NCBI GenBank assembly: GCA_046484055.1
Contig: JAWOBY010000066.1
Coordinates: 18,928 to 82,927 of the forward strand
DNA from: Candidatus Woesearchaeota archaeon
GTDB taxonomy: Archaea > Nanobdellota > Nanobdellia > Woesearchaeales > UBA12501
Reading direction: 5' to 3'
DNA: 64,000 bases
Notes under the pieces: model-generated
Databases searched by the model: none
What the model saw: the letters and a program-made list of their open reading frames with translations, nothing else
Told to the model about the DNA's origin: nothing
Shown: positions 9,611 through 64,000 of the stretch, one piece after another
Layout: each line of letters opens with the position of its first letter
How positions within the stretch are numbered: the stretch's first letter is position 1
Position numbers and translations under genes: made by a program

Positions 9611-9715
9611 TTTGACCTCCCTCTGTTCTTTTTTGTGAGATTGTTTTTTTATTTTTAATTCGTATTTGATTTTTGTTTCTCTTTCTTACTCCAATGAATG
9701 AAGGCAAGTCTTATT

Positions 9716-10669: not shown

Positions 10670-10805
10670 TGATGCGGATATTATGATTTATGGACGCTTT
10701 CTTTATAAATATTTTTGTATGCCCGGCAGGTTATGCATTGATTTCTGAATCCGCTCTAAACCTATGAATTTTTATTGCCGAATACCCTGATCAATGTATA
10801 AGCTC

Positions 10806-14017: not shown

Positions 14018-14443
14018 CTTACCCTCTTTTAATCCTCTTATCCAGCTTGCTGTATCTTCACGAGGCTATGCCCCCTGATCTGGTGTTCCGTCCGATATGG
14101 CCTGTCCGATGATACGCACAATCCCTGAACCAATACTAAACAGGCAGTTAGCTCAGCAGGTTTTACATCGCATCCGTTCCCTGGGTGCGTACCACTGTCC
14201 TTCATTTCTGAGGCACCCTTCATACCATGGGCGATATATGATTATGTAATCATGTCAAAACAGCTTTGAGCGGGCGGCCTGCACTCAGCTCTCCCTGGCA
14301 AGCACTTTCATGTTCACCACATCCAGCACTGTCTTGGGTTTTATCTCTATGACATTATTGCCTTCCCTTACCATGCTGTTTATGTTGAGGTCATAGGTCC
14401 TGTCCCTTGTGTCGATGCCCCTCTGGTGGTTGTTGACCCATAT

Positions 14444-15505
14444 CTACGCCTTCTTCTGCTCTGTGTCGCCCACGAACTCAAAGTAAAGAATTACATCAAT
14501 ATCCCCTTCTACAATATCATCATGTATCGACTTGTTTATCTCAAAATAGTAGGTGGGGTATACCATCTCTTTCAGATCGGTCTTCACCACTATGTTGTCT
14601 ATCAGGTATGATCCTTCTGTTGTGCTGAATTTGAGCTTGTTCTCGCCGCTCAGCAGGAGATGAGGCGACACCTCAAGGGGCCTGAGGATACCGCAGTCAG
14701 GCACTGACGAGTATATCCTGTTGTTGTTCAGCACTATCTCAAGAGGGCCCACTTCCTTGATGTCACAGTCAGGGAAGAACTTGACGAAAACCCTGTCAAG
14801 GTTGTTCTTCTCTGTGCCCGTCACCTGGAACACCAGCTCTGACTCCCTGGTGCTGACATCAGTGACATCAGCTGTTATCTTTATGTTCTCAAGTATGTAT
14901 TCGTTAGTGCGCCAGAACTTCCACCCGACGCCTGAGACCATGATCTCCAGAGTGTTATGGTCCTCAAGCAGCCTTTTCGGGAGCTTTATGGGTTCGGCAT
15001 TTGCAGAATTGAATTCATTATTGACGATCTCATTGCCGTTCAGCTTCATGATGAGCCTGCCCCTCCTGTTCTTGACATTGAATGAGAGCAGGATATCCTC
15101 AGTGTGCTCTATCTCGGGTATGGAGAATGTTAGATTCACCTTTGACTTGTCGAACCAGGCGTTCTTCACGTAGATGGACTGCCTGGACTGGAGAACCACT
15201 GCATCAGTGGTGGTATAGAGGTTCACTGACGGCAGTGTGTGCTCGACTTCCTTCTGCGATATATAATCAAGCCTGCCCGGACTCTCGACCAGGAGCGTGG
15301 AGTTCGGCCCTGACAATGAAGTGCCCCCTCCGCTGTCTGCCGTAGTGTTCTCATCAAGAAGCTCCGCCCTGTCCTCAGGGGGGATCATGAGTATGTATAT
15401 CACTATCAATGCCGCTATAACACCTACAAGAACCGCCGCGCTCGCGCCGCTAAGGCCTGAAGGCTGCCCTTTTTTTGACCTGATAAGCCTGATATCAAGC
15501 TTCAT
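14444..15505 (-). CDS. Membrane-anchored extracellular protein, possible class III (pilin-like) signal peptide
   Basis: Start set at MKLDIRLIRSKKGQPSG...AAVLVGVIAALIVIYILMI, a basic stretch with KKGQ followed by one hydrophobic helix. The remainder is beta-rich and extracellular. The track ORF starts further upstream, inside the divergent promoter region. Confidence 0.45.
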   Translation of the reverse strand: MKLDIRLIRSKKGQPSGLSGASAAVLVGVIAALIVIYILMIPPEDRAELLDENTTADSGGGTSLSGPNSTLLVESPGRLDYISQKEVEHTLPSVNLYTTTDAVVLQSRQSIYVKNAWFDKSKVNLTFSIPEIEHTEDILLSFNVKNRRGRLIMKLNGNEIVNNEFNSANAEPIKLPKRLLEDHNTLEIMVSGVGWKFWRTNEYILENIKITADVTDVSTRESELVFQVTGTEKNNLDRVFVKFFPDCDIKEVGPLEIVLNNNRIYSSVPDCGILRPLEVSPHLLLSGENKLKFSTTEGSYLIDNIVVKTDLKEMVYPTYYFEINKSIHDDIVEGDIDVILYFEFVGDTEQKKA

Positions 15506-15611
15506 ATCGGTAAAATAAATAGCTTTATATATAAATGTTTTTCTGTTTTCCCCTGAATCAGGCATTTCCGGCCCTGAATGAAGGGCCCCTGCTACATACG
15601 CCGAGGTGCAT

Positions 15612-16676
15612 ATGATGAAGGTTATCCATTCTGACTTCAGGAAAGGCGAAGTGAAGATTGCTGTTGACAGCCTTGACGATTTGTGGTATCTGAGCAACAT
15701 AATAGAGAACGGCGACACAGTGAAAGGTCAGACTGTGAGGAAGATAAAGCTCGGAGAAGAAGGGGACAGGAAGACGAGCATAAACAAGAGGAATGTATTT
15801 CTTTCAATCAGTGTGGAGAATGTTGAGTTCCATAAGTATTCAAACAGCCTCAGGATTTCAGGGGTGATAGCGGAAGGGCCTGAGGATGTTGCAAGAGGAT
15901 CCCACCACACATTCAATGTTGAAGAGGGCACAAAGCTGACAATACAGAAGGAGAGCTGGCCTGAATTCCAGAAGAAAAGGCTTAAGGAGGCATCCCAGCA
16001 GAAGGCCGCGAGCATACTGATCTGTATCATGGACAGGGAGGAGGCATACTTTGCGCTCATGAAAAGCTCAGGGTATGAGCTGCTCTCAACGATAAAAGGA
16101 GAGGTGGAGAGGAAGGACAGGGAATCGCAGAAGGGAAGGGATTTTTATGGCGAGATAATATCCGCGCTGAAGAACTATGATGAGAGATACAAGCTTGACA
16201 GGATAGTGCTGGCCAGCCCCGCCTTCTGGAAGGAGGACCTCATGAACTCTCTGAAGGATGAGGGGCTGAAAAAGAGGATAGTCCTGGCGAACTGCTCAAG
16301 CTCTGACGAGAAGGCATTCAATGAAGTGCTCAAGAGGCCTGAGGTGCAGGAAGCGCTGAGGCAGGACCGCATGACAAGAGAGATCAACAAGGTGGAGAGG
16401 CTGCTCGCAGAGATCTCCAAAGGAGGCCCCGCTTCTTACGGCCTGAGGCAGGTCGAGCAGGCGGCCGCAGCTGGCGCTGTGGAGGAGCTCCTCATAACAG
16501 ACTCATGCATAAATGATTCAAGGCAGTCCGGAGAGTATGAAATGATAGACAAACTCCTGAAGACAGCGGAATCCTCAGGGGGTGAGATCCACATGATAAG
16601 CTCTGAACATGACGGGGGGAAGAAGCTTGACGGACTCGGGGGCATTGGGGCGATGCTGAGGTACCGGATGGAATGA
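15612..16676 (+). CDS. pelA: Pelota/Dom34 mRNA surveillance protein
   Basis: eRF1-like domain architecture. The track ORF begins at a GTG, so the first in-frame ATG was used. Confidence 0.85.
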   Translation: MMKVIHSDFRKGEVKIAVDSLDDLWYLSNIIENGDTVKGQTVRKIKLGEEGDRKTSINKRNVFLSISVENVEFHKYSNSLRISGVIAEGPEDVARGSHHTFNVEEGTKLTIQKESWPEFQKKRLKEASQQKAASILICIMDREEAYFALMKSSGYELLSTIKGEVERKDRESQKGRDFYGEIISALKNYDERYKLDRIVLASPAFWKEDLMNSLKDEGLKKRIVLANCSSSDEKAFNEVLKRPEVQEALRQDRMTREINKVERLLAEISKGGPASYGLRQVEQAAAAGAVEELLITDSCINDSRQSGEYEMIDKLLKTAESSGGEIHMISSEHDGGKKLDGLGGIGAMLRYRME

Positions 16677-16753: not shown

Positions 16754-17779
16754 TCATGCGCCAAGAAGCTCTCTAACCTCTCTCGCAATCATCCTTGCCT
16801 CATCAGTCCTCACCGTGAGGACATTCTTTATCCTGAGATGGCCAAGATACTTTCTTATCCTGTTCCTTATGGCAGCGCTGTTCTCACCAATCCCTCCTGT
16901 GAAAACAAGCATGTCTATCCCGTTCATGGCGGCCGCATACGCGCCTATGTATTTGGCGGCGCGATAGCAGAACACATCCACTGCCAGCTTCGCTTTCCTG
17001 CTCTTCGATTCCAGAAGTTTTCTCATGTCACTGCTGAGGCCTGATATGCCGAGCAGGCCTGATTCCTTGTTGAGCATATTGTGTATCCTTTTAGGGCTGT
17101 GTCCTTTTGCTGTCAGGAACTGCATTATCCCTGGATCTATGTCCCCGCTCCTCGTGCCCATCACAAGGCCTTCCAGAGGGGTCATGCCCATCGATGTGTC
17201 TATGCTCTTTCCGTTCCTTATTGCTGTTACAGAACAACCATTGCCCAAGTGGCAGGTAACTATCCTCTGCTTTCTTATGTCTTTCCTAAGCCTCCGGCAT
17301 GCCTCATGCGCGACATACTTGTGGCTCGTGCCGTGGAATCCATATCTTCTTATCCTGTGCCTGCCTGACACATCAGAAGGAATCGCGTAGGTATACGCCT
17401 TTTCGGGCATGCTCTGATGGAATGCTGTGTCAAAGACAGCGATCTGTGGCTTGTCGAATATCCTCCTGCATATCCTTATCCCCTCGATCTCTGAGGGGTT
17501 GTGCAAGGGCGCAAGATCAGAAACCTTCTCAAGTTCCTTCATCAGAGCGCTGTTTATCCTTTGGGGCCTCTCAATCCTTCCTCCGTGCACAACGCGGTGG
17601 CCGACAGCATCTATGCTTATGCCCTTCCTGCTTATGATGCCCGATACCTTCAGCATCACCTTCCTGAAGTCATCTTTCTTTTTCAGTCCTTCAATGATGC
17701 CCTTGATCATCCTTTTTTCGTTGTCAAACACCTCATACTTGACAGAAGAGGACCCCACATTGAAAACCAGCACTTTCAT
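16754..17779 (-). CDS. ackA: Acetate (propionate) kinase family protein
   Basis: N-terminus MKVLVFNVGSSSVKYEVFD. Motifs VGHRVVHGG, HLGNGCSVTAI and FTGGIGENSAAIR. Compact at 341 aa. Confidence 0.8.
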   Translation of the reverse strand: MKVLVFNVGSSSVKYEVFDNEKRMIKGIIEGLKKKDDFRKVMLKVSGIISRKGISIDAVGHRVVHGGRIERPQRINSALMKELEKVSDLAPLHNPSEIEGIRICRRIFDKPQIAVFDTAFHQSMPEKAYTYAIPSDVSGRHRIRRYGFHGTSHKYVAHEACRRLRKDIRKQRIVTCHLGNGCSVTAIRNGKSIDTSMGMTPLEGLVMGTRSGDIDPGIMQFLTAKGHSPKRIHNMLNKESGLLGISGLSSDMRKLLESKSRKAKLAVDVFCYRAAKYIGAYAAAMNGIDMLVFTGGIGENSAAIRNRIRKYLGHLRIKNVLTVRTDEARMIAREVRELLGA

Positions 17780-17902
17780 TTTTCATCCACCACCTTTTAC
17801 GGCCTTCTTCATCAGCAGTATCGAATAGTATCATCCGGCAGTGTATATAAATTTTTTCAATGTATGCGATGCATGCCTTTCAAAAGATTTAAATAAAAAG
17901 CA

Positions 17903-19915
17903 GTGGAGGGACTATCTATCATGGGAGATGAGAGGGGGCCTTCAGGTCCTGAAGAGAAAGAGGAAAAAGAGGTGCTGAGCGGGGGGGCGCATGATAGGTT
18001 TCCCCCTCCCGAATGGTTCAGGCAGAAGGCCCGCATAAAAAGTTTTGAGGAGTATGAGAGGGAATACAACAGATCAATAGAGGATCCTGATTCTTACTGG
18101 AAAGACAAGGCGGAACAGATTGACTGGTTCGAAAAGAAAGACGGAAAGATATACTTCTGGGACGAAAAGGAGAGTATCTGCAAGTGGTTTGAGGGATGGA
18201 AGCTCAACGCATGCTACAACTGCATTGACAGGCACCTTGCTGACAAGGGGGAAAAGACAGCGATAATCTGGCAGGGCGAACCTGAAGATGATAAGAGGAC
18301 CTTCACGTACAAGGAGCTGCACAGGGAGGTGTGCAGGTTCGCCAATGTGCTAAAATCAAAAGGCGTAAAGAAAGGTGACAGGGTATGCGTCTATCTTCCT
18401 ATGATACCTGAGCTTGCGATAAGCATGCTCGCCTGCGCAAGGATAGGGGCGGTCCATTCCGTTGTTTTTGCTGCGTTCAGCCCCGCCGCATTGAGGGACA
18501 GGATTGATGATTCAAAAGCAAAACTCCTTATCACCGCAGACGGCAGTTTCAGGAAAGGCAGGGTGTATCCGATAAAACAGAATGCTGATGAGGCCCTAAG
18601 TGAGGGATGCGGAAGCATAGAGAACGTGATCGTGGTCAGAAGGACAGGAAGCGAGACAGACATGAAAGAGGAGAGGGACACCTGGCTGGACGAGGAGATC
18701 AAGGTTGTGTCTGATGAGTGCGAGGCAGAAGAGATGGACGCAGAGGATATGCTGTTCATACTCTACACCAGCGGGACCACAGGCAAGCCTAAGGGCGTTG
18801 TCCACACCACAGGAGGGTACCTGCTTTACGCCTACCAGACATTCAAGTGGGTGTTTGATATAAGGGATGAGGATATATACTGGTGTACTGCTGACATCTG
18901 CTGGATAACAGGCCATAGTTACATAGTTTACGGGCCCCTGGCGAACGCCGCCACCACTGTGATGTTTGAAGGGGCCCCGACATATCCCGAGCCTGACAGG
19001 TTCTGGAAGATCGTTGAGGACCTTAAAGTAAGCGTATTCTACACTGCTCCCACTGCAGTGAGAGCGCTTGCAGCAGAGGGCGATGAATGGCCAAAAAAGC
19101 ATGATCTCAGCAGCCTGAGACTACTGGGCAGTGTGGGCGAGCCCATAAACCCTGAGGCGTGGAGATGGTATCATGATAATATAGGGAGAGGGGAATGCCC
19201 AATTGTTGACACGTGGTGGCAGACAGAGACAGGTGGGATAATGATAACTCCTCTTCCTGGAGCGATGGATCTCAAGCCGGGATGCGCGATGAAGCCTTTT
19301 CCAGGCGTCAATCCTGCAGTGCTGAGGGAAGACGGCTCTGAAGCAGAGAGGGAAGAGAATGGTTATCTCGTGATAAAACAGCCATGGCCGGGAATGCTGA
19401 GAACATTATACAACAACCATGAGAGATTCAGGGAAACATACTTCTCAAGGTTCAGGGGGATGTATTTCACAGGGGACGGCGCTAAGAGAGACATCGAGGG
19501 GGACATCTGGCTGATGGGAAGGATTGATGATGTCATAAATGTCTCAGGTCACAGGGTGGGCACTGCAGAGATTGAAAGCGCACTGGTGAAGCATGGTGAT
19601 GTCGCTGAAGCTGCGGTCGTGCCTTACCCCCACAAGATAAAGGGAAGTGGGATCTATGCCTTTGTCACGCTCAACAAGGGTGTGGAGAAGAGCGAAGACC
19701 TGAAAAAATCCCTTACTGGACTGGTTTGTGATGAGATAAGCAAGGTCGTAAAGCCGGATAAGATACAGTTCTCTGATGCCCTGCCCAAGACAAGATCAGG
19801 CAAGATAATGCGGCGCATACTCAGGAAGATAGCTGAAGGATCACAGGATATAGGGGATACGTCAACGCTTGCTGACCCTTCAGTCGTTGATAAGCTGCTT
19901 GAAGAGAGGCAATGA
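17903..19915 (+). CDS. acs: Acetyl-CoA synthetase (AMP-forming)
   Basis: 670 aa. AMP-binding motif [13 protein letters not shown]-terminal RSGKIMRR. The start could instead be the Met at 17921. Confidence 0.9.
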
Positions 19916-19976
19916 ACACATCTCATGCGCACACACAGCCGAAAAATTTGATCAAAACGATGCCGGAAGATTGCTG

Positions 19977-20243
19977 ATGTCTCTGGAAAAAATAAGGGTG
20001 ATGGTGCAGCAGGCTGAATTCATGAGCCAGGATGACATAGAAGAGATAAAGGAATGCATAGGCCTTCTGAAAAAGAGTGAATGTTCTGATGGCAGGGTTC
20101 TTGAAGAGCATTTCTTCACAAAAGAGTTTGGTTTCCCAAAAGACTGGAAAGAATACAAATGGTATGTTGTCCAGATGCTGGACGAGTATTGTATAGTGAC
20201 TCCTGAGGAAGCAAGGAAATTCTATGACAGGGGCCTCATATAA
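19977..20243 (+). CDS. Hypothetical small protein
   Basis: The ORF has typical local codon usage. Its track start overlaps the acs 3' end, so the internal Met was chosen. No homology recognised. Confidence 0.3.
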   Translation: MSLEKIRVMVQQAEFMSQDDIEEIKECIGLLKKSECSDGRVLEEHFFTKEFGFPKDWKEYKWYVVQMLDEYCIVTPEEARKFYDRGLI

Positions 20244-20367
20244 TCCAGGGCATCAGAGCGCTCTCAATGGAAAGGGATTGAGGGAAGGGCGAACCTGATG
20301 GGGGTGGGATGGTGAATGTGAATGGGATTTATGAATGGGTTTTACAAGAGCGGACGCATTCGCCTCG

Positions 20368-21390
20368 TCAGTCCGCCTGCTCATGCGCATTCCCGTAATC
20401 CTTCTTTTGCGCTTCGATTACTGTTATGGCTGTTATGTCTACAATCTCCCGGACAGAACACCCCCTTGAGAGGTCATTAACCGGTTTTTTCAGGCCCTGA
20501 AGCACCGGCCCTACAGCCTGGGCCTTGCCGAAGAATGTTGCGAGCTTGTATCCTATGTTGGCTGCATTGAGCTCAGGGAATATGAGGACATTCGCTCCGC
20601 CATGCAGTTTGCAGTCAGGGCATTTTATCCTGCATACCTTGGGATCCACAGCAGCGTCAAGCTGCAATTCACCGTCAATGAGAAGGTCCGGAGCGTGGTA
20701 TTGGGCTATCTCTGTGGCTTCTTTCACTTTTTTCACCATCGGATGCTTCGCTGAACCCTTTGTGGAGAATGACAGCATCGCCACCTCGGGCTCCAGACCG
20801 AACCTTTTTGCGGTCATGGCGGTATCGATGGCTATGTTGGCCAGGTCTTTCGCGTCAGGATCCGGCTCCACAGCAGCATCAGCGAAAAGCATCAGCTTGT
20901 TCTTGAACATCATGAAGAATACCCCTGATACCTTATGGAACTTCTTCTTGGTCCCTATTATCTCGAATGCAGGCAGAAGGGTATGCGATGTGGGATGCAC
21001 AGCACCTGATATGAGGCCATCCGCATCCCCTGTCTGGACCATCATCACCCCGAAATGGACGGGTTCTTTCATTTTCTTCCTTGCCTTTTCAAGGGTGATC
21101 CCCTTGTGTTTCCTCAGCCTGTAAAACTCCTGGGAGTAAGAGTCAAGTTTCTTTGAATCCTCTGCCCCTATTATTTCGACCGTGTTCCGATCTATTGCGA
21201 GCCCGAGCTCTTTTATCCTGCCTATAATCTCTTTCTCATCGCCAATGAGGACAGGGCAGGCGATGCCTTCCCTTGTTATGGTTTCTATGGCCTTCAGTGT
21301 CCTTTCCTCTGTGGATTCAGGGTAGACTATCCTCTTGGGTTTTTTCTTTGCTTCTTCAATCCATTTTTCCATTATTTTTCTCATTGCCAT
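20368..21390 (-). CDS. pta: Phosphate acetyltransferase
   Basis: Blocks such as RLRKHKGITLEKARK, STKGSAKHP, IDGELQLDAA and NDLSRGCS match Pta (Methanosarcina-like). Start set at the internal MAMRKIMEK. Confidence 0.85.
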   Translation of the reverse strand: MAMRKIMEKWIEEAKKKPKRIVYPESTEERTLKAIETITREGIACPVLIGDEKEIIGRIKELGLAIDRNTVEIIGAEDSKKLDSYSQEFYRLRKHKGITLEKARKKMKEPVHFGVMMVQTGDADGLISGAVHPTSHTLLPAFEIIGTKKKFHKVSGVFFMMFKNKLMLFADAAVEPDPDAKDLANIAIDTAMTAKRFGLEPEVAMLSFSTKGSAKHPMVKKVKEATEIAQYHAPDLLIDGELQLDAAVDPKVCRIKCPDCKLHGGANVLIFPELNAANIGYKLATFFGKAQAVGPVLQGLKKPVNDLSRGCSVREIVDITAITVIEAQKKDYGNAHEQAD

Positions 21391-21590
21391 CTCGTAAGAT
21401 ATTCCATTATTTAAAAATTTGCACATACCGTGCAGGTCATACCCTGCCCAACCCCCCTAAACCCCTACTCAAAGGGGATGTTTCACATCTATAAGAGAGT
21501 GAAAAACCGTAACATATTAATAGTAGTACTACTTTTTCATTCACTGGGCAGGTAAAAATCGCCCAAAAAAAGAAAAAAGGGGGTTGGAAA

Positions 21591-46072: not shown

Positions 46073-49000
46073 TTATTTGAGCTTGAGGCCTGTCTTTTTC
46101 TTTCCTTTATCCTGTTTCTTTGGCTTCTTCTCTTTGGCCTTTCCGCTTTCCGGGGATTTCTCTCTCCTCCTCAGGAGTGCCAGCATAACTCCCAGCGCGA
46201 TAAGCCCCCCTATGATATAATATAAGTATGAGAATATGCCGCTGAATCTGCTTTCTCTCACCTTGAGGATGAAATGCTTGTTGTGCGGCTTTTCCTTTCC
46301 TGTTATGTCCATGCCGACAGTGACCTTATAGTTTCCCTCTTCCACTGTGCTGTTTGGCGCGGCCACCAGGTTGATCGTCCTGTTCTCTCCCGGACTTATC
46401 TCCACGCTGGTGTTGTCCATGTATATCCAGTCCACATCCTCTCTCACGCTTATCCTGAATTTGGTGGTCTTATTGACATTTGATATCCTGACGGGAACGA
46501 GGGTTTCTGTTCCCTGTTTCACGAAGACTTCCTCAAATTCTTCTTCAGGGATGCCCTCCTCTTCTGTGTCCTCTGCTGATACTCCTTCATCAGTTCCAGT
46601 ATCCTGTGGTTCTTCATCAAGCTCTTCGCTATCTGATGCTTCCCCGCTCAGGTTTCCGCTTTCGTTTCCTGTGGTATCCTCTGTGGCGTTTGCAGTTCCG
46701 GAGGATATCATTCCCGCTATGGCTGCGCTTCCGAGGTAAATGGCCCCTGCAGCGAGTAACAGGGCGATGAGTATGAGTATCGCTATCATCAGGATGTTCT
46801 TGATCCTGCTGTAGTCCTTCTCAGGATGCTCTTCTTTCCTTCTCTCTTTTCCGCTTTCTTGCTTTTTCTTCTGGGAGGCTGATTCTGAACCCTTCTTCTC
46901 CCTGTATTCTTTGGTCTTTATGGCTGCCAGCAGTATCGCCAGCAGGAGTAACCCTCCCAGCACATACCACATATATCTCTCATAGAATGGCTCCCTCTCT
47001 TCTATGCTCAGGACTATCTCCTCTGTTATGGGCTTTTCCTTTCCTGCCACATTTATCCTTACGCTGAGGTTATAACTTCCTTCCCTCACCTCATCTGTGG
47101 GCGTGACAAGAAGGTTTATTGTTTCCCTCTCCCCAGGGGGTATGCTCACCAGATCCTTGTCTGTCCTGACCCATGTTATATTCTCGCTTACCCTTATCCT
47201 GTATGTGTTGGGCCTGTCGCTGTTCTGTATTATAAGAGGTATCGTTATGTTCTCACTGCTGACTACTTCAATCACATTGCCTTCACCTTCAAGGCCTGTC
47301 CTGTTGACAAATATTGTCGCGTTAGTGAACGGTTTTGAGGGCAGCTCTTCCGGCTGTGCCGGCTCTTCAGGACCCTCTCCTGTGGCATTGGTGATGTTTG
47401 TGGCATTTCCTGCGGTTATGGGTGCGATAGCGAAATGGTATGCTGTGATCGCGATGCCTGCCAGAAGTATCAGCAGCAGAAGCAGCAGAAGGATCCTTCT
47501 GAGCCAGCCCGGCTTCTCCTTGCTGATGAGTTTCTCTTCCTTTGGCTTCGCTTCTTTAGGCTTCTCTTCCTTAGGGCGCCTATTCCTGTATGCAATCCCC
47601 CCTATTACAGCTCCGGCCAGTATCAGGATGAGGAGCAGCGCTGAAAGCATGTAAATCCAATAACTGCTGAAGAACCTTGTTGTTTTCTCCCACAAGGTAC
47701 TCTCTCTCAGGTTTATGTCAAAATTCCTTGAGTATGCTATGTTCGTGCCCTCAAGCTGCGCATCCACTCTTACAGGGTATTTCCCCTCAGGAGTCGCGTT
47801 CTGGGGCAGGAGACTCATGCCGGCAGTGTCTTCCTCTCCGGGCTCCACACTTATCCTTGTCCTGTTGATATGCGTCCAGTTATTCCCGTGGACGCTCAGG
47901 AGGTAATCTCCCTCCCTTATTCCATCATTACTGAATCTGAGAGTTATGGTCTTTCCCTCATAACTGGTGTCTATGTCATCATCTTCCGCGTTTATCTCAA
48001 GGCTGTAGGCGTCTTCCCTCTCCATTATCTCTGCGGTGAAACCTATGGCTGCTGTCTCTTCAGGATATGATTCTATGGATCCTTTCAGTTCGAATGCGTA
48101 TGTGCCTGTTGTGTTCAGCGGGACATCATAATACAGGTTTATCTCCTTTTCCGTGCCTTCGTCAAGCCCCAGCCTGTTCGTTTCCAGTCTCAGCCACTCC
48201 GGTCCTGTGTGGTTGAAGGAGTATTCGCTTGCCTTGCTCCCGTCATTTTTCACATTGAATGGCATGGGGCCTTCTTCCCCTTCCACCAATTGGTACCAGA
48301 CCTCGGGGGCGCTCATGTTGATAGAGTGGCAGTCCTCCACCTCAGCGGCTATGCTGAGCGTTTTCCTTATCTCCCCTCTTGCTGTCACAGCGTCTATGGT
48401 CACGTTGTGGGTCCCGGTCCTGACTTCATAAGGGAAGATATTGAGATTGACTGTCTTCTCTTGGCCCCCTGCAAGGGCTATGCTTGAATTGTCGAATGCA
48501 GTCCATTCAGTATCAGAGCTGAGAAAGTAAGTGTTTGATATCTCTGCGGTATTCTTTATTGTTACAGGTATGCTGCCTCCTGATTCCTGACATATGGAGT
48601 GCTGTCCGGGGGATCCCATAGTATAATTATAGCAGGGGGCTACCTGCAGGTTGAAGGGGAGTTCCGCTGTCATCCCGCTTCTTTCAGTATCTGCTTTTAG
48701 TGTGAAATCAAGATCACCATAGCTTCCGCAGGGGGTTGTTATGAAAACTGTTACATTCTCTTTTGATTGGGGCTCCAGTATGAGGACGTCCTCGCTCAGC
48801 TCAGCATATTCGCTCTCCATCTCAAGATTGTATGTTTCCAGGAATGGGCCTGTGTTCTGTACGCTGAATGTGTATTCTGCCGGTGAGCAGGGGCAGACAG
48901 GGGCGGATGCTTTCACCATCCTGAGGCCTATGTTTACACAGTCCTTCGCTTTTATTGTCTGGGAGAACTCTTTCTCTGTATCAAAGACTGTCTTGATTAT

Positions 49001-49345
49001 GGTGTCTATCTTATACTCCCCTTTGATGCCGCATGGGACCCTCACAAAGTTTGTTATCTCTTTCCTCTCTCCCGGCTTCAGGCTGAAGGCCTTCTCTGTG
49101 AGGGTCGAGAATCTTTCTCCGGGGCCTGACTGCTCTATGCTGTATGTGCTGGTGGTATCGCCTGTGTTCTCAACCGCCATAGAACTTTTTTCAGAAGAGC
49201 ATGGGCACACGTAGATTGTTTTCTGGCTCGCGTAAGCATTGAAATCCTCCTCCAAAGAGCCTTCCAGGGCAAGCGCGCCCCTGACACTGACTAATAGGAG
49301 AAGGATACCTATCAAAACATAGATTAATTTGATTTTACTACTCAT
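46073..49345 (-). CDS. Large modular cell-surface protein: signal peptide, CARDB-like beta-domain repeats, and four single TM segments with K/E-rich stretches between the first pair and after the fourth
   Basis: Signal peptide MSSKIKLIYVLIGILLLLVSVRGALA. Repeated CPCS...NTG...PCG..G(E)Y modules. Two clear C-terminal repeats (ISPGEnRTINLV...EGnY...GKEKP). Four hydrophobic helices, with basic K-rich stretches between the first pair and after the fourth. Many N-x-S/T sequons. Confidence 0.6.
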   Translation of the reverse strand: MSSKIKLIYVLIGILLLLVSVRGALALEGSLEEDFNAYASQKTIYVCPCSSEKSSMAVENTGDTTSTYSIEQSGPGERFSTLTEKAFSLKPGERKEITNFVRVPCGIKGEYKIDTIIKTVFDTEKEFSQTIKAKDCVNIGLRMVKASAPVCPCSPAEYTFSVQNTGPFLETYNLEMESEYAELSEDVLILEPQSKENVTVFITTPCGSYGDLDFTLKADTERSGMTAELPFNLQVAPCYNYTMGSPGQHSICQESGGSIPVTIKNTAEISNTYFLSSDTEWTAFDNSSIALAGGQEKTVNLNIFPYEVRTGTHNVTIDAVTARGEIRKTLSIAAEVEDCHSINMSAPEVWYQLVEGEEGPMPFNVKNDGSKASEYSFNHTGPEWLRLETNRLGLDEGTEKEINLYYDVPLNTTGTYAFELKGSIESYPEETAAIGFTAEIMEREDAYSLEINAEDDDIDTSYEGKTITLRFSNDGIREGDYLLSVHGNNWTHINRTRISVEPGEEDTAGMSLLPQNATPEGKYPVRVDAQLEGTNIAYSRNFDINLRESTLWEKTTRFFSSYWIYMLSALLLILILAGAVIGGIAYRNRRPKEEKPKEAKPKEEKLISKEKPGWLRRILLLLLLLILLAGIAITAYHFAIAPITAGNATNITNATGEGPEEPAQPEELPSKPFTNATIFVNRTGLEGEGNVIEVVSSENITIPLIIQNSDRPNTYRIRVSENITWVRTDKDLVSIPPGERETINLLVTPTDEVREGSYNLSVRINVAGKEKPITEEIVLSIEEREPFYERYMWYVLGGLLLLAILLAAIKTKEYREKKGSESASQKKKQESGKERRKEEHPEKDYSRIKNILMIAILILIALLLAAGAIYLGSAAIAGMISSGTANATEDTTGNESGNLSGEASDSEELDEEPQDTGTDEGVSAEDTEEEGIPEEEFEEVFVKQGTETLVPVRISNVNKTTKFRISVREDVDWIYMDNTSVEISPGENRTINLVAAPNSTVEEGNYKVTVGMDITGKEKPHNKHFILKVRESRFSGIFSYLYYIIGGLIALGVMLALLRRREKSPESGKAKEKKPKKQDKGKKKTGLKLK

Positions 49346-49550
49346 GGTCAATGACCCCCATTTGTTACTATTGGATAATATTATATTATATAAATGTTTC
49401 TGTTTTCTCATAAAAAATCAAAAACTTTATATAGCACAATTTAACTATTGTTAATAATGGTTTTTTAGGGTTTTTAGGGAGTGGTTAGCGTGATCATAAT
49501 GCCTCCAGCCCATGGGGGGCCAATACAGGGTGAAGAATACAGGGTGAAGA

Positions 49551-58704: not shown

Positions 58705-61700
58705 TCATTCTTTGAAGTCAAGCGCGAACTTATACTCAATGGGTTCTCTCACAGCCCTCCTCTTCTCAGGGTCATATACAGATGACATGCTTTCTGTTCT
58801 CACGCAAAGCTTGTAATTCCTCTTCTCAACCTCGCATCTGGTTCCTGAATCATCATCGGTAAAGGTGAGGGTGTTCCCGTCCTTTTTGGCATATAATGTC
58901 TCTACACCGCTTTCTGTCCTTATCCTCTTGCTGTCTTCTACAGAACCGGGGAATGAATAGGACGCATCCGGGGTTTCAGAGGTTATCTTTATCTTGCCGG
59001 AGCCTGAAGCGCTTATCGTGACCTCCTCACTGCTGTCCTCCTTCTCGTACTCATACTCAAGGGGTATCTCGCAAGTGCACTGGTCGCTCTCTGATTCCGC
59101 GCAGGCCTTGGTCCACTCGGCGAAATCGCTGATCATATTCTCCTGATAATCGCAGGGCCCGTTGAAGAGGAGGAGGTCATCATCTATCTCCCTGCGGTCA
59201 TCTACCGCTTCCTTGACACATTCCCTGAGACCATCCGAGCTCTCGTCTTTGCACTCATGTATTATCTCTTTTGCTGTCCGGATCAGCTTGCTGTACACTT
59301 CAGGGTCGTAATCGGTCTCTGCCCTGAAGGAGGGGTTCGCATAATACTCCCCTATCTTCATGTAATCCACTGGCTTGTACTCACAGACATAAGGGGAGCC
59401 TCCCGCTTCAACCATCATTGAATCCCCTTCTCTTGTCACCGCCCTCTTCACTGCTGCCATGACCCTTGAAGGATACTCATACATCCCTTCCGCGAACTCT
59501 TTGCTCCATCCCCTGCTTTCAGCCAGATCTTCAGCATCCTCCAATGTTATATCCTCCCACTTGATCTCCTCTGCCATCTTATCCTCTCTTTCAGATGCAA
59601 GGCTCCTGATCTCTTTCGCCACTCCTTCTCCATACCTGTAGCAGAGGCTGATCCAGTAATAATAATCCCCGTTCGTTTCGGGCACGACGCTGCATTCCTT
59701 GATTGTGTTCTTCAATGAGATGGCTCCTGCCCCAATCTGGTCGCCTGCTCCCTCCATACCCTTGATGAAGTCATCCCACTTGCAGGTCTCTTCCTCGCAC
59801 TCATTCGGCCCCAGTCCTGATTCTGTTGCGGGACCGACTCTCATCAGGCCGCAGTAACCGTTCTTGTTGCAGACGCATCCTTCATCATTGCAGAACATGT
59901 TGTCTTCTGATTCCTCAAAAGGTGTTGGGTCGCCTCCTGATTCCACTGCTATAATCCCTTTTATGAGCCCTGCAGGCAGATCATAATGCTCGTTCATTTC
60001 AGTGATATGCTCTTCATACTCTTTTATCCTTCCTTTTGCCTTGTCCCAGTCAGAGCTGTCATCAAGAGTGTGGTCTATCTGGCTGAAATCATAATCAGGA
60101 AGGTTATCCTCAGCGATGTCCATGCCGGTTATGGCTGTTTCTATAGCTGTTCCTGAAGCTTCATTGCCCGCCGGACCTGTTGGATGCTGTGTCCTGTCTG
60201 TCATGGGATTCAGGGAAGGACCGAAGAGCCTGCTGACAAGCCCGGTGATAATATTATCTTCATTGCCATCAGGAGAACCAGGTTCCGCCACTGCGGCTGT
60301 TGTTATGCTGTTCCCCCCTCCCAGGTCTGCTTTGGTGAATGAGTCAAAACCTTTCGGCCTTGCGAACCCTATCTTCATGCCGGGCTTTTTCTCCTGCTGG
60401 GCCCTCCTTATCTTCATGAATTCCTTGAGAGGCCGGTCCTTCAGGTGGCTTCCCCCTCCTGATTCGGATGTCCAGAGCTCTCCTCCCTTTCCGTATATCA
60501 TCAGCACATGATCCCATGTGCGCTTTGACATCCAGTTATTGGTCCCCCCGCTGGGCCTGTCCAGGAGGACGATGTCTCCCGGCCGTGCCTCTGATTCGCT
60601 TATCATGGTGGAGTACTTCGGGCTGCCCCACTGCTCGGCCAACGGGCCGTGTCCGCTTCCTAATCCTTCCATCCCTTTGCGTTCCCGTATCTCATTCACC
60701 AGGAAATGGACCCAGCCCGAGCAGTCGATGCCTCTTCCGGGTGTGGATCCGCCTAGCTGATATTCGGTGTTGTAATACTTGCTTGTCAGCTCGTCTATTA
60801 TGCCCGAAACTGTCCTGGCTCTCTCTTGGCCGGTTCCTGCTGATACATCTTCCCCTCCTCTGTCAGGAGTGTACTCACAGACGCATCTCAATGCTCTGCC
60901 TCCTGCAGTTGCGGTTGTCATGCCACCCATGCAGGCTGTGGACTCGTCAAGCTTCCTTATGATCGGCATGACCTTGCTGATGTAGTAGGGGTCTGTGGCA
61001 TAGCCCGCTTCTCGTGTCGCTTCAAGGATCTGCGGGGCTGTGAGCTTTGTGATATCTGAAGTCCCGAACATCTCTCTCCTCTTGCTGCTGTGCCTGCTCT
61101 TCTCAAGCAGTTCTATATGGGCCCTGAAACTCTCTGTGGCGGATGAGTATTTGGCGAAGTCTGCTGTCACGGTAGTCCTTTTTCCTTCATAATATTCTGT
61201 CGTTTCCGTTCTGTAACTGCCTGCATCGCCGCTTCCTTTAACACCAAAAAAATTATTGGCGTTCTTTGTGAGACCTGAACTGCCGTATCCGCTTTCCAGG
61301 GCTGCCTGCGCGAGCGTGAATTTGGCGAGCTCTATCGATCCTCTTGATGCCGCAACTGCATCATCCCAATACTTGCTGAAGAATCCCCTCTCTTTACCGC
61401 CGTGCATGGAGAAGTCAGGGCATGAAGAGCCAGTGCTGCTCACAGGCATCCCAGTTATAGAATTTACAGCTGATCCTGTTATCTGCCCTGTTGTTTGTGA
61501 TGCGCTTCCTGATGAGGACGCGATGCCCGCTGACTGTCTCTTCTTCTTCACTGCCACAAGGGCCATGGGTATGCTCCTTCCGCTGTCAGAGAAACTCTTT
61601 GTCTCTCCCCCCGATCTTATTGATACATCCCTCCCGCTCACATGGTATTCAAGCGATGTGGAGCTGCCCCCGTCCAAAGCTATGGTGCGTGTGCACTTGT

Positions 61701-63060
61701 GCTGATTCTTCATATATTCCGCGAACTGCAGAGATGTCGCGCGCTCTGCAGCGAAAAGCTTTATCTCTCCGTTCTCTGTTATGCAGATTGAAGCCCTCTG
61801 CCTCACGCCCTTGTCATTCCTGACCACAACACTTCCTTTTTTTATGAATGTCCTGAAGTCGCTTACAGCTGAGCTAACTGAACTCATCTGCTCATCACTG
61901 TATGATCTGAACTCTTCAGCAGTGATTATCTTCTGCATACCATCCTCAACAACAAAGAAATTCTCCTCCTCCATATCCCCCCTGCCTTCTATCAGTTCTC
62001 CGTAGGCTATTATGTCTGTTGTGGGGCTGAAGTCGGGCTCGAAATAGACTCCGTTTATTGCCGCAACAGAATCAGGCACCCCTCCTATGATCTCCTTGAG
62101 CGGGGCTGACCTCTTGCCCAGCACCTCATCAGCTGTGACTGTCCTCAACACATATTGCCTGGGGTCAAGAGTGGCTGTGTACGACCTGCCCCCATTGAGT
62201 GTTGATTCCTGGATGTTTATTCCAGCCCCTTCAGAAAGCGCGGTGATGCTCTCTGTCTGGGACGAGCCTGGAATACAAAGGTTTCCCTGCACCCCTCCTA
62301 TATCAGGCACTGCAGCGACCCCCTGTGGCGTGCTGGTCTGAGTTCCCGCGTACTCCTTTATGGAATCCAATAATAACTCTGCCAGCTTCTGCCTGAAGCC
62401 ATCATCATTGAGTCTCGGATCATCAGTGTTGCTCAACTCTATCAGGGCGGTGGCTGCCTTGTCTGATTCTGACGCTTTCCTCAGGAAGTAGAGGTATTGG
62501 CTGTATTTTTTTAATGGTTTGTTGCTCACATCCCCGAACTTTCTTGCTATTATCTCGCCCAGTTTCTTGTCTTCCGCGCTGCCTGCGCTCCAGTCGCACT
62601 TCTCCCTGTACTTGTCTGCTGAGGGGCAGTGTATTATCACCTTGCTCCCCTTGCAGTTCAGGCAGTCGCTGTGTATGTCTATTATGACATCCGCGTCCGC
62701 TTTCAGGGCCTTGCCTGCCCTCTTCTCAAGGTTCTTCTTGCTGCCCCCGCTGCAGTCTTCAACCCTTGTCATCACAGCATTGCCGCCTTCTGATTCCACC
62801 ATGGCTTTAAGTTTCATCGCTACGTCCTGGACTATCTCAGCCTCTCCCGGCGCGCCCGCGTTACAGCCCGTACCTGCAGGAGTCCCGTGCCCCGCTTCTA
62901 TCGCTATGGTTTTTCCCGAGAGTGCCTGTGCGCTTGCGCTAAAAGATGACATGGAGGCGCAGATCATCAGGAGAGCTGCCAATAACAGGATTCTTGAAGG
63001 ATGCAATTCCTGCTTTGCATTTCCGATGCTTGTGCCTCTCTTCTTGTTTATATTCCCCAT
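58705..63060 (-). CDS. Giant secreted multi-domain cell-wall (peptidoglycan) hydrolase: Amidase_3, phosphodiester glycosidase (DUF2233), GH73 glucosaminidase, NlpC/P60 and SLT domains
   Basis: Signal peptide. Amidase_3 IAIEAGHGTPAGTG...VMTRVED...DVIIDIHSD. DUF2233 AINGVYFEP...IALDGGSSTS. GH73 AALESGYGSSGLTKNANNFFGVKG...GYATDPYY. NlpC/P60 GIDCSGWVHF...WDHVLMIYG. SLT IIAVESGGDP...YCGLMRV. Confidence 0.8.
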   Translation of the reverse strand: MGNINKKRGTSIGNAKQELHPSRILLLAALLMICASMSSFSASAQALSGKTIAIEAGHGTPAGTGCNAGAPGEAEIVQDVAMKLKAMVESEGGNAVMTRVEDCSGGSKKNLEKRAGKALKADADVIIDIHSDCLNCKGSKVIIHCPSADKYREKCDWSAGSAEDKKLGEIIARKFGDVSNKPLKKYSQYLYFLRKASESDKAATALIELSNTDDPRLNDDGFRQKLAELLLDSIKEYAGTQTSTPQGVAAVPDIGGVQGNLCIPGSSQTESITALSEGAGINIQESTLNGGRSYTATLDPRQYVLRTVTADEVLGKRSAPLKEIIGGVPDSVAAINGVYFEPDFSPTTDIIAYGELIEGRGDMEEENFFVVEDGMQKIITAEEFRSYSDEQMSSVSSAVSDFRTFIKKGSVVVRNDKGVRQRASICITENGEIKLFAAERATSLQFAEYMKNQHKCTRTIALDGGSSTSLEYHVSGRDVSIRSGGETKSFSDSGRSIPMALVAVKKKRQSAGIASSSGSASQTTGQITGSAVNSITGMPVSSTGSSCPDFSMHGGKERGFFSKYWDDAVAASRGSIELAKFTLAQAALESGYGSSGLTKNANNFFGVKGSGDAGSYRTETTEYYEGKRTTVTADFAKYSSATESFRAHIELLEKSRHSSKRREMFGTSDITKLTAPQILEATREAGYATDPYYISKVMPIIRKLDESTACMGGMTTATAGGRALRCVCEYTPDRGGEDVSAGTGQERARTVSGIIDELTSKYYNTEYQLGGSTPGRGIDCSGWVHFLVNEIRERKGMEGLGSGHGPLAEQWGSPKYSTMISESEARPGDIVLLDRPSGGTNNWMSKRTWDHVLMIYGKGGELWTSESGGGSHLKDRPLKEFMKIRRAQQEKKPGMKIGFARPKGFDSFTKADLGGGNSITTAAVAEPGSPDGNEDNIITGLVSRLFGPSLNPMTDRTQHPTGPAGNEASGTAIETAITGMDIAEDNLPDYDFSQIDHTLDDSSDWDKAKGRIKEYEEHITEMNEHYDLPAGLIKGIIAVESGGDPTPFEESEDNMFCNDEGCVCNKNGYCGLMRVGPATESGLGPNECEEETCKWDDFIKGMEGAGDQIGAGAISLKNTIKECSVVPETNGDYYYWISLCYRYGEGVAKEIRSLASEREDKMAEEIKWEDITLEDAEDLAESRGWSKEFAEGMYEYPSRVMAAVKRAVTREGDSMMVEAGGSPYVCEYKPVDYMKIGEYYANPSFRAETDYDPEVYSKLIRTAKEIIHECKDESSDGLRECVKEAVDDRREIDDDLLLFNGPCDYQENMISDFAEWTKACAESESDQCTCEIPLEYEYEKEDSSEEVTISASGSGKIKITSETPDASYSFPGSVEDSKRIRTESGVETLYAKKDGNTLTFTDDDSGTRCEVEKRNYKLCVRTESMSSVYDPEKRRAVREPIEYKFALDFKE

Positions 63061-63069
63061 CCTACCCTC

Positions 63070-63999
63070 TCATCTTTCGTTTCCTGTCTTTTTTTCCATA
63101 AGTTTCTGGATATCCTTCTGCTTCCATCCTCTCTGTGCAAGCCATTCTATTATCTGGCTGTCTTTGTAGCCCAGCCTCTTGTAATAATTGTACTCATACT
63201 CCAGTCTCGGGTTCAATAATCCTTTTTCTCTTCTCCTGGATACTATGATTGCGATGAATCCTGTTGCAAGAATGATGATCAGGATTGCCAAGCCGCTCCA
63301 TAAAAGACTCGGCCCGTCATCTTCTGTCGTGTATAGGAAACCCTCCCCTGGGCCGCCATAACCCTCATAATCCTCGTACTCATCCTCAAGCTCTTCCTGA
63401 TATGATCCGGCGAACTCCTGCTTATCCTCCACGCATTCTCCATCACAGCAGGCATTTCCTTCAGTTCCACGGGAAAGGATTTCTCCTTCACATTCCTGCC
63501 ATGGCCTGCACAACTCACCTCCTGATATCCTGCAGGATGCATTCACATCCGGCCTCCCGTCAATCCAGCTTTCTTTTTCCTTGCCTGCGCCCTCTCCTTC
63601 CAGCTCCCAGAGATCATCGGAAGATGCGATATCATCCCCATAATTACTGTATCTGGGCTCTCTTTCTTCGGCTTCAGCAGAGAGGTCTATGCATCTGCCG
63701 ATGCAGCACAGAATATCTCCCATCTGCTGCACTGAACCGCCGCATGCCTCCTCTGAATAGCATTGCTCACCGCCTTTTATCCTGCATTCCCTGCTGTCTT
63801 CTCCTGTCCCTATCTCTATGCACTCGCCGAGGCAGCACGAATCAGCGTATTCGCCGTGCTCGAATGTGGATACTATCTCGCCGTCGCACTCCTCTGTCAC
63901 GCTGCAGAGCTCTCCGCCGTAATTCAGCTCGCATTCAGGCGGCCCCTGATCATTGTAGAAGCATCCTTCCTCCTCACAATCCTGGCAGTCAGCGTCCAT
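63070..63999 (-). CDS. Cys-rich repeat ectodomain protein with a C-terminal TM anchor; partial, N-terminus beyond the window end
   Basis: Three repeats of the GGELC...EEC.GEI......CC.GEC.E pattern. TM helix LAILIIILATGFIAIIVS. Short basic cytoplasmic tail. Ends 10 nt upstream of the hydrolase gene. Confidence 0.55.
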   Translation of the reverse strand: MDADCQDCEEEGCFYNDQGPPECELNYGGELCSVTEECDGEIVSTFEHGEYADSCCLGECIEIGTGEDSRECRIKGGEQCYSEEACGGSVQQMGDILCCIGRCIDLSAEAEEREPRYSNYGDDIASSDDLWELEGEGAGKEKESWIDGRPDVNASCRISGGELCRPWQECEGEILSRGTEGNACCDGECVEDKQEFAGSYQEELEDEYEDYEGYGGPGEGFLYTTEDDGPSLLWSGLAILIIILATGFIAIIVSRRREKGLLNPRLEYEYNYYKRLGYKDSQIIEWLAQRGWKQKDIQKLMEKKTGNER

Positions 64000-64000
64000 G

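Follow-up and report, generated by a model that had tools for sequence, protein, structure and literature searches.

A mosaic, predicted secreted protein with bacterial-type cell-wall hydrolase domains at a conserved locus of Woesearchaeota

What would an archaeon without murein do with a protein assembled from the hydrolase domains of bacterial cell walls? The question is raised by a 64,000-nucleotide stretch of contig JAWOBY010000066.1 from Candidatus Woesearchaeota archaeon (assembly GCA_046484055.1), here called the window, which carries a complete open reading frame (ORF) for a 1451-residue protein. From its N-terminus this protein, hereafter the hydrolase, comprises a predicted signal peptide, an Amidase_3 domain, an NAGPA (DUF2233) domain, a GH73 glucosaminidase, an NlpC/P60 peptidase, a region resembling the SLT lytic transglycosylases and a C-terminal domain (CTD) (Table 1). 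A sequence-only reading of the window had proposed a secreted protein at these coordinates and of this length; both values were exact, and inspection of the N-terminus supports a Sec-type signal peptide. The evidence presented below makes it probable that the protein is a secreted multi-enzyme murein hydrolase of Woesearchaeota and a member of the giant 'murein-like lytic transglycosylase' surface proteins of this lineage.

The Pfam gathering cut-off (GA) was used as the pass mark for each domain, and three domains (Amidase_3, NAGPA and GH73) exceed it. Alignment of the Amidase_3 domain to E. coli AmiC (4bin) and CwlD (7rag) places H58, E73 and H130 at the zinc-ligand positions contained in the GHG, E and IHAD elements of AmiC. 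The candidate catalytic glutamate, E208 in the sequence LIELSN, lies in a loop three residues shorter than that of AmiC and CwlD; the same short E-x-SN spacing is found in the Pfam-passing relative P0009 (LVEVSN), and E208 is most plausibly the catalytic residue. The GH73 domain aligns with FlgJ (5dn5, E = 1.7e-11) and also with 7qfu, and its E589 (ALESGYG) and E622 (TTEYYEG) match the ALESGWG and TTEYENG motifs of FlgJ residue for residue, with the YATD motif present as YATDPYY. NCBIfam and PHROGs agree with Pfam, returning FlgJ/GsmA-type glucosaminidase, CwlD/AmiC-type amidase, and endolysin and tail-lysin families.

The NlpC/P60 domain appears to be borderline rather than absent, scoring 20.1 bits in the full protein and 24.2 bits when residues 701–950 were searched alone, against a GA of 23. 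C780 (GIDCSG) aligns with the catalytic Cys of Spr/MepS (2k1g), and H851 (DHVLMIYG) aligns with the His of the HVGIY motif of P0010 and P0011 in a MAFFT alignment that included the relatives P0007 and P0008, whose NlpC/P60 domains are 48–54% identical to this one.

For the transglycosylase region, three independent lines (homology, profile and fold) support a GH23/SLT fold. Residues 990–1224 match the relative P0034 at 2.4e-28 (phmmer) across its SLT domain, which itself passes Pfam (32.9 bits), and the region aligns with P0007 (66.4 bits) and L007 (69.1 bits), both of which carry Pfam-passing SLT domains. Residues E1040-S1041, G1071-L-M1073 and Y1141 are invariant across the family alignment, and an atypical Cys-rich insertion of ~30 residues separates the ES and GLM motifs. 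When the family profile was compared with the PDB, the top ~15 of 19 matches were MltC, MltE/EmtA and g-type lysozymes aligned on the catalytic-Glu helix, and the remainder were mostly weaker transglycosylases; each of these matches is individually weak (E = 0.02–0.5). Similarly, the top ~40 Foldseek matches of a structure model of residues 990–1451 were MltF, MltE and g-type lysozymes, with a probability of up to 1.0 and a best E of 5e-3. The motifs singled out in the sequence-only reading, namely GIDCSGWV (C780), HVLMIYG (H851), ESGGDP (E1040) and GLMRV, are all present, and key catalytic residues are kept in four domains: Amidase_3, GH73, NlpC/P60 (Cys and His) and SLT (Glu).

The N-terminus fits a cleaved Sec signal peptide with an n-region (K6, K7 and R8), a 14-residue h-region (I24–M37) and a c-region (A42-S-A44, followed by Q45). 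The segment I24–M37 is the sole hydrophobic segment of the whole protein in a hydropathy scan, and the N-termini of the relatives P0004, P0005 and P0006 resemble that of the hydrolase. A class III (prepilin) signal was considered for the hydrolase and rejected: no hydrophobic stretch comes after its KKRG, whereas one does come after the corresponding sequences of P0007, P0008, L007 and L010.

At the opposite end of the protein, the CTD, whose structure was modelled from seven sequences, carries the motifs NPSF, NGPCxYxEN, SDFxEW and CxCEIPLEYEY together with invariant Cys residues, and a Cys pattern is conserved in the C-terminal half of the hydrolase family, which fits an exported protein. 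The CTD is restricted to this family, and a profile search with a three-sequence CTD alignment returned only the relative P0002. We propose that it docks the enzyme to the cell surface or to the target. In L011 it is interrupted by an inserted NAGPA domain, which indicates that the CTD tolerates insertion between its helical and sheet parts.

The bonds addressed by these families are well defined. Amidase_3 enzymes cleave the link between N-acetylmuramic acid (MurNAc) and L-Ala, GH73 enzymes the β-1,4 bond from N-acetylglucosamine (GlcNAc) to MurNAc, NlpC/P60 enzymes the stem peptide and SLT enzymes the β-1,4 bond from MurNAc to GlcNAc. Given these family specificities, the four apparently competent domains would cover both glycosidic bonds, the MurNAc-L-Ala link and the stem peptide. 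Relatives of the hydrolase add VanY, M15, M74 and YkuD domains, and the specificity of these domains for D-amino acids points to murein rather than pseudomurein as the substrate. Action on bacterial cell walls, as the sequence-only reading had suggested, is what these murein-directed domains most reasonably indicate.

The gene is native to the archaeon. Its product is identical to an NCBI protein encoded on a 94.6-kb contig that is source-named as a Candidatus Woesearchaeota metagenome-assembled genome (MAG), and the window around it encodes the small and large subunits of PolD (DP1/DP2), MCM with an archaeal winged helix, Cdc6/Orc1, RadA, RPA, RFC, Fen1, aRF1, an archaeal-type PheRS and the proteasome-activating ATPase PAN. 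The GC content (0.516), GC3 (0.581) and codon usage of the hydrolase gene all fall within the spread seen among 23 window housekeeping genes; its codon usage correlates with that of the pooled housekeeping genes at r = 0.875, within the range of those genes themselves (0.63–0.95). The order hydrolase, RPA, YdjM, RadA, tRNA-modification ATPase, ThiI/THUMP, NifU and IscS recurs in four loci from independent assemblies, L001 and L005 (both Logan), L004 (NCBI) and L006 (a Crystal Geyser Woesearchaeote), with RPA 59–70% and RadA 79% identical between the window and the syntenic relatives, and the hydrolase–RPA junction is found in independent NCBI, Logan and JGI assemblies. The conserved gene order across independent assemblies, together with codon usage, rules out contamination or a chimera, in agreement with the archaeal assignment made in the sequence-only reading; the hydrolase–RPA order is present in at least four other genomes. 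A phage or provirus origin was also rejected: a search of 50,697 phage records found no copy of the CTD module, and the only IMG/VR matches were two weak ones to the generic SLT helix. Outside the family, the nearest amidase (P0010) is encoded beside ribosomal L11, Spt5 and LonB, an archaeal context, and the domains seem to circulate within DPANN rather than to be recent bacterial imports. One syntenic locus, L004 (JBHPEW010000091.1 of GCA_042576465.1, 19.5 kb, protein MFC1731647.1), is labelled 'candidate division KSB1 bacterium' by NCBI. Its RPA, RadA, NifU and IscS are 66–79% identical to the window genes and occur in the same order, which identifies it by sequence as a mis-binned Woesearchaeal contig.

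The hydrolase belongs to a small family of mosaic proteins. An exhaustive HMMER search with residues 1–1200 against 1.84 billion representatives gave 6955 matches, nearly all of them to single domains; E ≤ 1e-30 was reached by only seven representatives, all large mosaic relatives, and a full-length word-index search found only the hydrolase itself. Approximately 12 relatives were recovered, all in Woesearchaeota or Nanoarchaeota contexts, with 2–8 wall-active domains arranged around the transglycosylase and CTD. A scan of 185,579 species-representative genomes with this core module revealed six loci, none of them bacterial; they lie in Woesearchaeota, Nanoarchaeota or Nanoarchaeia MAGs, one of them labelled Methanosarcinales. 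The syntenic relatives carry differing sets of wall-active domains around the same transglycosylase and CTD core, upstream of RPA. The NAGPA–GH73 block of the hydrolase is 41% identical to that of P0004, and its SLT–CTD core is 39–44% identical to those of P0002–P0006, so that the protein looks like a recombinant of family cassettes. The comparison with related genomes that had been recommended in the sequence-only reading was thus carried out, and showed varied domain combinations at the same locus wherever the context is visible. The same reading had called the five-way fusion extraordinary, a description that does not hold: family members carry up to ~8 wall-active domains, and by domain content a five-way fusion is typical of the family rather than exceptional within it. 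The relative P0006 is PIN86129.1 from a Crystal Geyser CG10 Woesearchaeote, a type of data set used by Castelle et al. 2021.

Two relatives call for separate comment. The MAG that contains L007 is labelled 'uncultured Methanosarcinales archaeon', which is probably another binning or labelling problem; the label could also hint at an association with methanogens. P0002 (433 aa, ENA contigs L002 and L003) consists of the SLT-like and CTD core only and lacks a signal peptide; its ORF starts with TTG and is preceded by an in-frame stop. It represents either a core that stands alone or a gene that has been disrupted.

The gene directly upstream encodes a Cys-rich membrane protein in which a six-Cys module occurs three times, alongside a transmembrane (TM) segment and a short conserved cytoplasmic tail. 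It had been singled out beforehand as part of the candidate system, and the finding of homologues directly upstream of P0004 and P0006 identifies it as a conserved partner. All three loci whose hydrolase has a signal peptide also encode the partner, whereas none of the three informative loci whose hydrolase has its own N-terminal membrane helix does so; this association spans six loci only and is confounded by relatedness. This pattern suggests that the Cys-rich partner may tether the exported hydrolase to the cell surface. Several relatives begin with [KR][KR][GAS]-Q, followed by ~20 hydrophobic residues and a conserved 'IGxNQLAxLxTAxKAEKALLxID' domain (Table 1). These N-termini resemble archaeal class III (prepilin-like) signals, and such giant hydrolases might be pilin-like or anchored at the N-terminus. 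Gene clusters co-oriented with the giant hydrolase lie upstream at three loci. In L006 and L004 the cluster encodes a TM-anchored Amidase_3 protein, a second Cys-rich TM protein, two small TM proteins and an Amidase_3 plus Peptidase_M74 protein, whereas L005 instead has ~16 small unannotated ORFs and an Amidase_3 gene upstream of the hydrolase. The equivalent region of the source contig lies past window position 64000.

Table 1 Features of the window and of related loci and proteins. Positions are those of the window unless a locus is named.
Feature	Position	Residues or length	Strand	Basis or content
Mosaic secreted cell-wall hydrolase (predicted), complete ORF	58705..63060	1451 aa	minus	ATG start; NCBI MFO8016664.1
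Sec-type signal peptide (predicted)	62929..63060	aa 1–44	minus	sequence reading and hydropathy scan; cleavage predicted after A44 (ASA/QA)
Amidase_3 (PF01520, MurNAc-L-Ala amidase)	62356..62907	aa 52–235	minus	Pfam 49.0 bits vs GA 27
NAGPA/DUF2233 phosphodiester glycosidase (PF09992)	61555..62070	aa 331–502	minus	Pfam 51.0 bits vs GA 25
NAGPA loop	61669–61683	aa 463–467		D463-G-G-S-S467
GH73 / Glucosaminidase (PF01832), N-acetylglucosaminidase	60946..61329	aa 578–705	minus	Pfam 91.3 bits vs GA 30.2
NlpC/P60 cysteine peptidase (PF00877), borderline	60463..60768	aa 765–866	minus	Pfam match aa 765–859, below GA in full protein
GH23/SLT-like lytic transglycosylase (PF01464)	59431..60057	aa 1002–1210	minus	homology, PDB profile, fold search
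Lineage-specific CTD	58708..59388	aa 1225–1451	minus	three helices and antiparallel sheet (modelled)
Cys-rich type-I membrane protein	63070..63999, cut by window end		minus	co-oriented, 9 nt upstream of hydrolase start
Conserved gene order next to the hydrolase	50.7–58.6 kb			RPA to IscS
Co-oriented block	8705–15718		minus	no Pfam matches
Large protein	46073–49411	1112 aa	minus	CARDB, FixG_C Ig-like, NPCBM-associated domains
Acetate gene region	16754–21426			
Acetate kinase	16754–17779			bacterial-type
AMP-forming acetyl-CoA synthetase	17903–19915			
Phosphotransacetylase	20368–21426			bacterial-type
Relative P0004		1633 aa		Metallophos + NAGPA + GH73 + (SLT-like + CTD) + C39-like peptidase (Pfam)
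Relative P0005				Metallophos + NAGPA + (SLT-like + CTD) (Pfam)
Relative P0006				Metallophos + two NAGPA + (SLT-like + CTD) (Pfam)
Relative P0007		1660 aa		NlpC/P60 + Amidase_3 + YkuD + polysaccharide deacetylase + (SLT + CTD) (Pfam)
Relative P0008				NlpC/P60 + YkuD + deacetylase (Pfam); [KR][KR][GAS]-Q start
Relative P0034				SLT + M23 + CTD-like (Pfam)
Relative L011	L011 3–7433	>2477 aa, cut by contig end		Amidase_3, C39-like, VanY, GH73, NlpC/P60, NAGPA, fn3, deacetylase; interrupted CTD, aa 1403–1591, 1630–1818, 1837–1915
Relative L009		>1770 aa		Amidase_3, C39-like, M15, VanY, GH73, NlpC/P60
Relative L007	CAYNHV010000014.1 7850–12211	1454 aa		C39-like + NAGPA + SLT + CTD; [KR][KR][GAS]-Q start (L007 7850-)
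Relative in L005	L005 10001–14983			[KR][KR][GAS]-Q start
Relative in L006	L006 3600–5708			[KR][KR][GAS]-Q start
Relative in L010	L010 5903-			[KR][KR][GAS]-Q start
Upstream cluster, L006	L006 347–7045			co-oriented with giant hydrolase
Upstream cluster, L004	L004 109–5628			co-oriented with giant hydrolase
Upstream cluster, L005	L005 749–9991			co-oriented with giant hydrolase

Several observations count against a fully competent, surface-held murein hydrolase, among them the narrow sample behind the tether pattern. The five domains named in the sequence-only reading occur in the order given there, with three above their cut-offs and NlpC/P60 at the border; the fifth fails its cut-off, the Pfam SLT model giving the C-terminal part 12.4 bits (E = 0.11) against a GA of 21.3, and is supported instead by the homologues, PDB profile and fold described above. 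The structure model of residues 990–1451 has a mean predicted local distance difference test (pLDDT) score of 61, falling below 50 in the Cys-rich insert. The third catalytic residue of canonical NlpC/P60 enzymes is polar (His, Asn, Gln or Glu) and lies ~12 residues past the His; this position is T864 in the hydrolase and Val in P0007 and P0008, and the conserved SES that follows T864 might stand in for it. The assertion that all five domains are catalytic is supported for the four with intact residues and is doubtful for NAGPA, whose loop reads DGGSS and not the expected DGGGS, which a motif comparison found retained in six related NAGPA copies (P0003–P0006, L007 and L011). A 2026 structural study describes this sugar-phosphate loop as strictly invariant in NAGPA and shows that substitutions within it, including G289A at the position occupied by Ser here, abolish the activity of the human enzyme (PMC13474241). 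This copy may therefore be inactive or repurposed, its assignment to the fold family itself being sound. The signal-peptide call was made by eye. Moreover, no LysM, SH3, PG_binding, SPOR, CW_binding or similar domain was detected in the hydrolase (Pfam, E ≤ 1), and the lack of a recognised wall-binding domain leaves substrate targeting unexplained. To our knowledge, no bacterial host of any Woesearchaeote has been demonstrated.

If the protein works as its domain content suggests, it would be exported through its Sec signal peptide and perhaps held at the archaeal surface by the CTD and the Cys-rich partner. There it would take apart the sacculi of bacteria nearby, cleaving the two kinds of glycosidic bond as well as the glycan–peptide link and the peptide stem. 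Such cleavage would create a point of contact on a host or prey bacterium and/or liberate amino sugars and amino acids which a DPANN cell of reduced metabolism is unable to synthesise. Swapping of catalytic cassettes would represent adaptation to different or changing target walls. The purpose may be the breaching of a bacterial host or prey, the killing of competitors or the scavenging of wall debris; surface association and cassette turnover incline us towards a contact-dependent role. A more elaborate proposal, possible if doubtful, casts the hydrolase as the variable 'warhead' of a conserved multi-gene surface apparatus with which some Woesearchaeota would dock on and locally perforate living bacteria, in a cross-domain episymbiosis or predation. 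Exchange of cassettes at the fixed locus would then be part of an arms race against the wall chemistry of the host, and a pilin-head-like CTD would mount the enzyme on a tether or pilus-like fibre. Components of such an apparatus occur in the relatives, which encode membrane-anchored amidases, an M74 endopeptidase, small prepilin-like membrane proteins, a Cys-rich tether and the giant hydrolase. That the protein serves scavenging only is unlikely; in this reading it would obtain amino sugars and amino acids by digesting free peptidoglycan, the necromass of anoxic sediment or groundwater, with neither cell attack nor symbiosis involved. The fermentative acetate metabolism and amino-acid permease encoded in the window would suit such a lifestyle, as would a cleavable-looking signal peptide on a protein with neither a membrane anchor of its own nor a recognised wall-binding domain. 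However, the tight conserved pairing with a membrane protein and the anchored or pilin-like N-termini of relatives suggest surface retention, rapid exchange of cassettes at one unchanging locus is seen more typically in proteins of interaction or conflict, and no MurNAc/GlcNAc transporter or catabolic genes were seen near the locus.

The choice of murein as the substrate also has to be weighed against an archaeal polymer, either pseudomurein belonging to partner methanogens or a polymer in the wall of the Woesearchaeote itself, on which the protein would act as an autolysin or remodelling enzyme. One family member resides in the Methanosarcinales-labelled MAG, Woesearchaeota often co-occur with methanogens, and the grouping of several hydrolase genes next to core genes recalls the way bacteria arrange their autolysin or divisome genes. 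The biochemistry nevertheless makes this decidedly improbable: Amidase_3 enzymes need the MurNAc lactyl-L-Ala bond and lytic transglycosylases the C6-OH of MurNAc, whereas pseudomurein consists of β-1,3-linked N-acetyltalosaminuronic acid without a lactyl group and contains only L-amino acids. The VanY, M15, M74 and YkuD domains of the relatives are specific for peptides with D-Ala or meso-diaminopimelic acid. No pseudomurein endoisopeptidase-like domain was found in the hydrolase, Pfam and NCBIfam searches (E ≤ 1) returning neither a Pei-type peptidase domain nor pseudomurein-binding repeats; the 64-kb window contains no Mur ligase, MraY or PBP genes; we found no published report of murein synthesis in DPANN; and Methanosarcinales do not synthesise pseudomurein. 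That the protein is mainly an adhesin, its partly degenerate hydrolase-like domains binding wall carbohydrate or peptide with little lysis, would accord with the altered NAGPA motif at a catalysis-essential position, the non-canonical third residue of NlpC/P60, the lack of a dedicated binding domain (catalytic folds could double as binders) and the 'attachment to bacterial cell walls' proposed for the family by Castelle et al. 2021 (PMC8204110). We regard this as very improbable, given that the hydrolase retains, and its relatives conserve, the key catalytic residues of Amidase_3, GH73, NlpC/P60 (Cys and His) and SLT (Glu). Scarcely credible is an artefact, whether through contamination, chimeric assembly or the erroneous joining of a phage or provirus lysin gene to an archaeal contig. 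All of the catalytic domains are indeed typical of bacteria and phages, with matches to PHROG endolysin and tail-lysin families, and one relative is filed under a KSB1 bacterium MAG; that contig itself carries archaeal RPA and RadA, and the recurrent gene–RPA junction, the native base composition and codon usage, the absence of the CTD module from the phage records, with only the two weak IMG/VR matches to the SLT helix, and the archaeal setting of the closest outside amidase all contradict such an origin. A secreted murein hydrolase directed at bacteria thus remains the probable function.

Proteins of this kind were reportedly sighted by Rinke 2013 and Castelle 2015 (AR20), as cited by Castelle et al. 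2021. The latter described a family found widely among Woesearchaeota and Pacearchaeota and suggested that it attaches to the walls of bacterial cells (PMC8204110). Vigneron et al. 2022 reported a 'large lytic murein transglycosylase' (GH23) in Woesearchaeota and argued for a 'vampiristic' lifestyle (PMC9723730), and a study of DPANN in oxygen-deficient zones makes the same transglycosylase observation again (PMC10936187). The hydrolase shares with these giant transglycosylases its phylum, its nature as a very large secreted or surface protein with a GH23/SLT-type domain, its restriction to the lineage and the proposed binding or degradation of bacterial walls. The published family comprises extracellular proteins of >1000 aa with a lytic transglycosylase (LT) domain, confined to Woese- and Pacearchaeota; the hydrolase has 1451 aa, a predicted signal peptide and an LT-like domain, and on this description would be a candidate member of fam00969. 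Only the transglycosylase domain is mentioned in the published accounts, whereas further hydrolase cassettes are present here. The Amidase_3, NAGPA, GH73 and NlpC/P60 cassettes, the conserved CTD, the RPA-side locus and the Cys-rich partner were not found in published descriptions of the family.

A second comparison is with the modular peptidoglycan hydrolases (PGHs) that Strock et al. 2025 found in ~5% of archaeal genomes, especially Nanoarchaeota, two haloarchaeal examples of which kill a bacterium (PMC12352652). Like these PGHs, for example Woldo and Danwoldo of Halogranum salarium (M23 plus PG_binding_1), the hydrolase combines bacterial-type hydrolase domains in a murein-less archaeon, is predicted to be secreted, is prominent in Nanoarchaeota and shows a patchy distribution with domain shuffling. 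In contrast, those PGHs combine one catalytic domain with recognised wall-binding domains, whereas the Woesearchaeal protein has five hydrolase-type domains and no recognised binding domain, and would therefore have been missed by a filter that required one. Antibacterial action is shown for the haloarchaeal enzymes. The description 'undescribed system' in the sequence-only reading consequently goes too far: giant murein-lytic proteins of Woesearchaeota had already been noted, and archaeal PGHs acting against bacteria have been shown in other archaea (PMC12352652). By these comparisons the locus is of moderate interest, its kind already described, some of its features under-described and the protein a good candidate for experiments.

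Among bacterial systems, several hydrolases are multi-catalytic, including Atl (amidase and glucosaminidase), CwlT (muramidase and NlpC/P60), the PrgK-type proteins of conjugation (LytM, SLT and CHAP) and phage tail or tape-measure lysins. They resemble the hydrolase in combining several bond specificities in one polypeptide, in producing a local hole in the sacculus and in drawing on the same Pfam families. These bacterial and viral proteins usually have 2–3 catalytic domains and act on their own wall or that of a phage host, unlike the hydrolase, which has five domains (~8 in relatives) and an archaeon-specific CTD and is encoded by a murein-less organism. A further parallel may be Vampirococcus lugosii of the candidate phyla radiation (PMC8080830) and the MltA-like transglycosylase of Bdellovibrio (PMC10127604), in which a reduced or predatory cell breaches foreign murein with secreted lytic transglycosylases and peptidases. 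Both organisms have murein of their own and matching control systems, whereas for Woesearchaeota a predatory or episymbiotic life is a proposal. We know of no DPANN archaeon shown so far to live on or prey upon a bacterium; every cultured DPANN archaeon has an archaeal host.

Genes of this sort are the main genomic argument for a physical interaction between Woesearchaeota and bacteria. The finding overturns nothing, both the family and the idea being already in the literature, and the locus provides an unusually rich test object, with four apparently competent activities that would cover every major class of murein bond, a lineage-specific CTD, a membrane partner and a fixed chromosomal position with cassette swapping. 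If activity on murein and susceptible bacteria were shown, the question of DPANN hosts would become experimentally tractable, and new antibacterial enzymes might follow.

Elsewhere in the window, Rfam and tRNA scans of the 64 kb gave no matches. The 1112-aa protein, which combines its recognised domains with membrane-like stretches, is probably a large cell-surface protein. The co-oriented block without Pfam matches encodes three proteins of 300–350 aa with lipobox-like N-termini (LLAGC, LFGC and LSAGC), a 723-aa protein with approximately five TM segments and a 424-aa protein. The bacterial-type acetate kinase and phosphotransacetylase genes, an AckA-Pta combination that few archaea possess, flank that of the AMP-forming acetyl-CoA synthetase.

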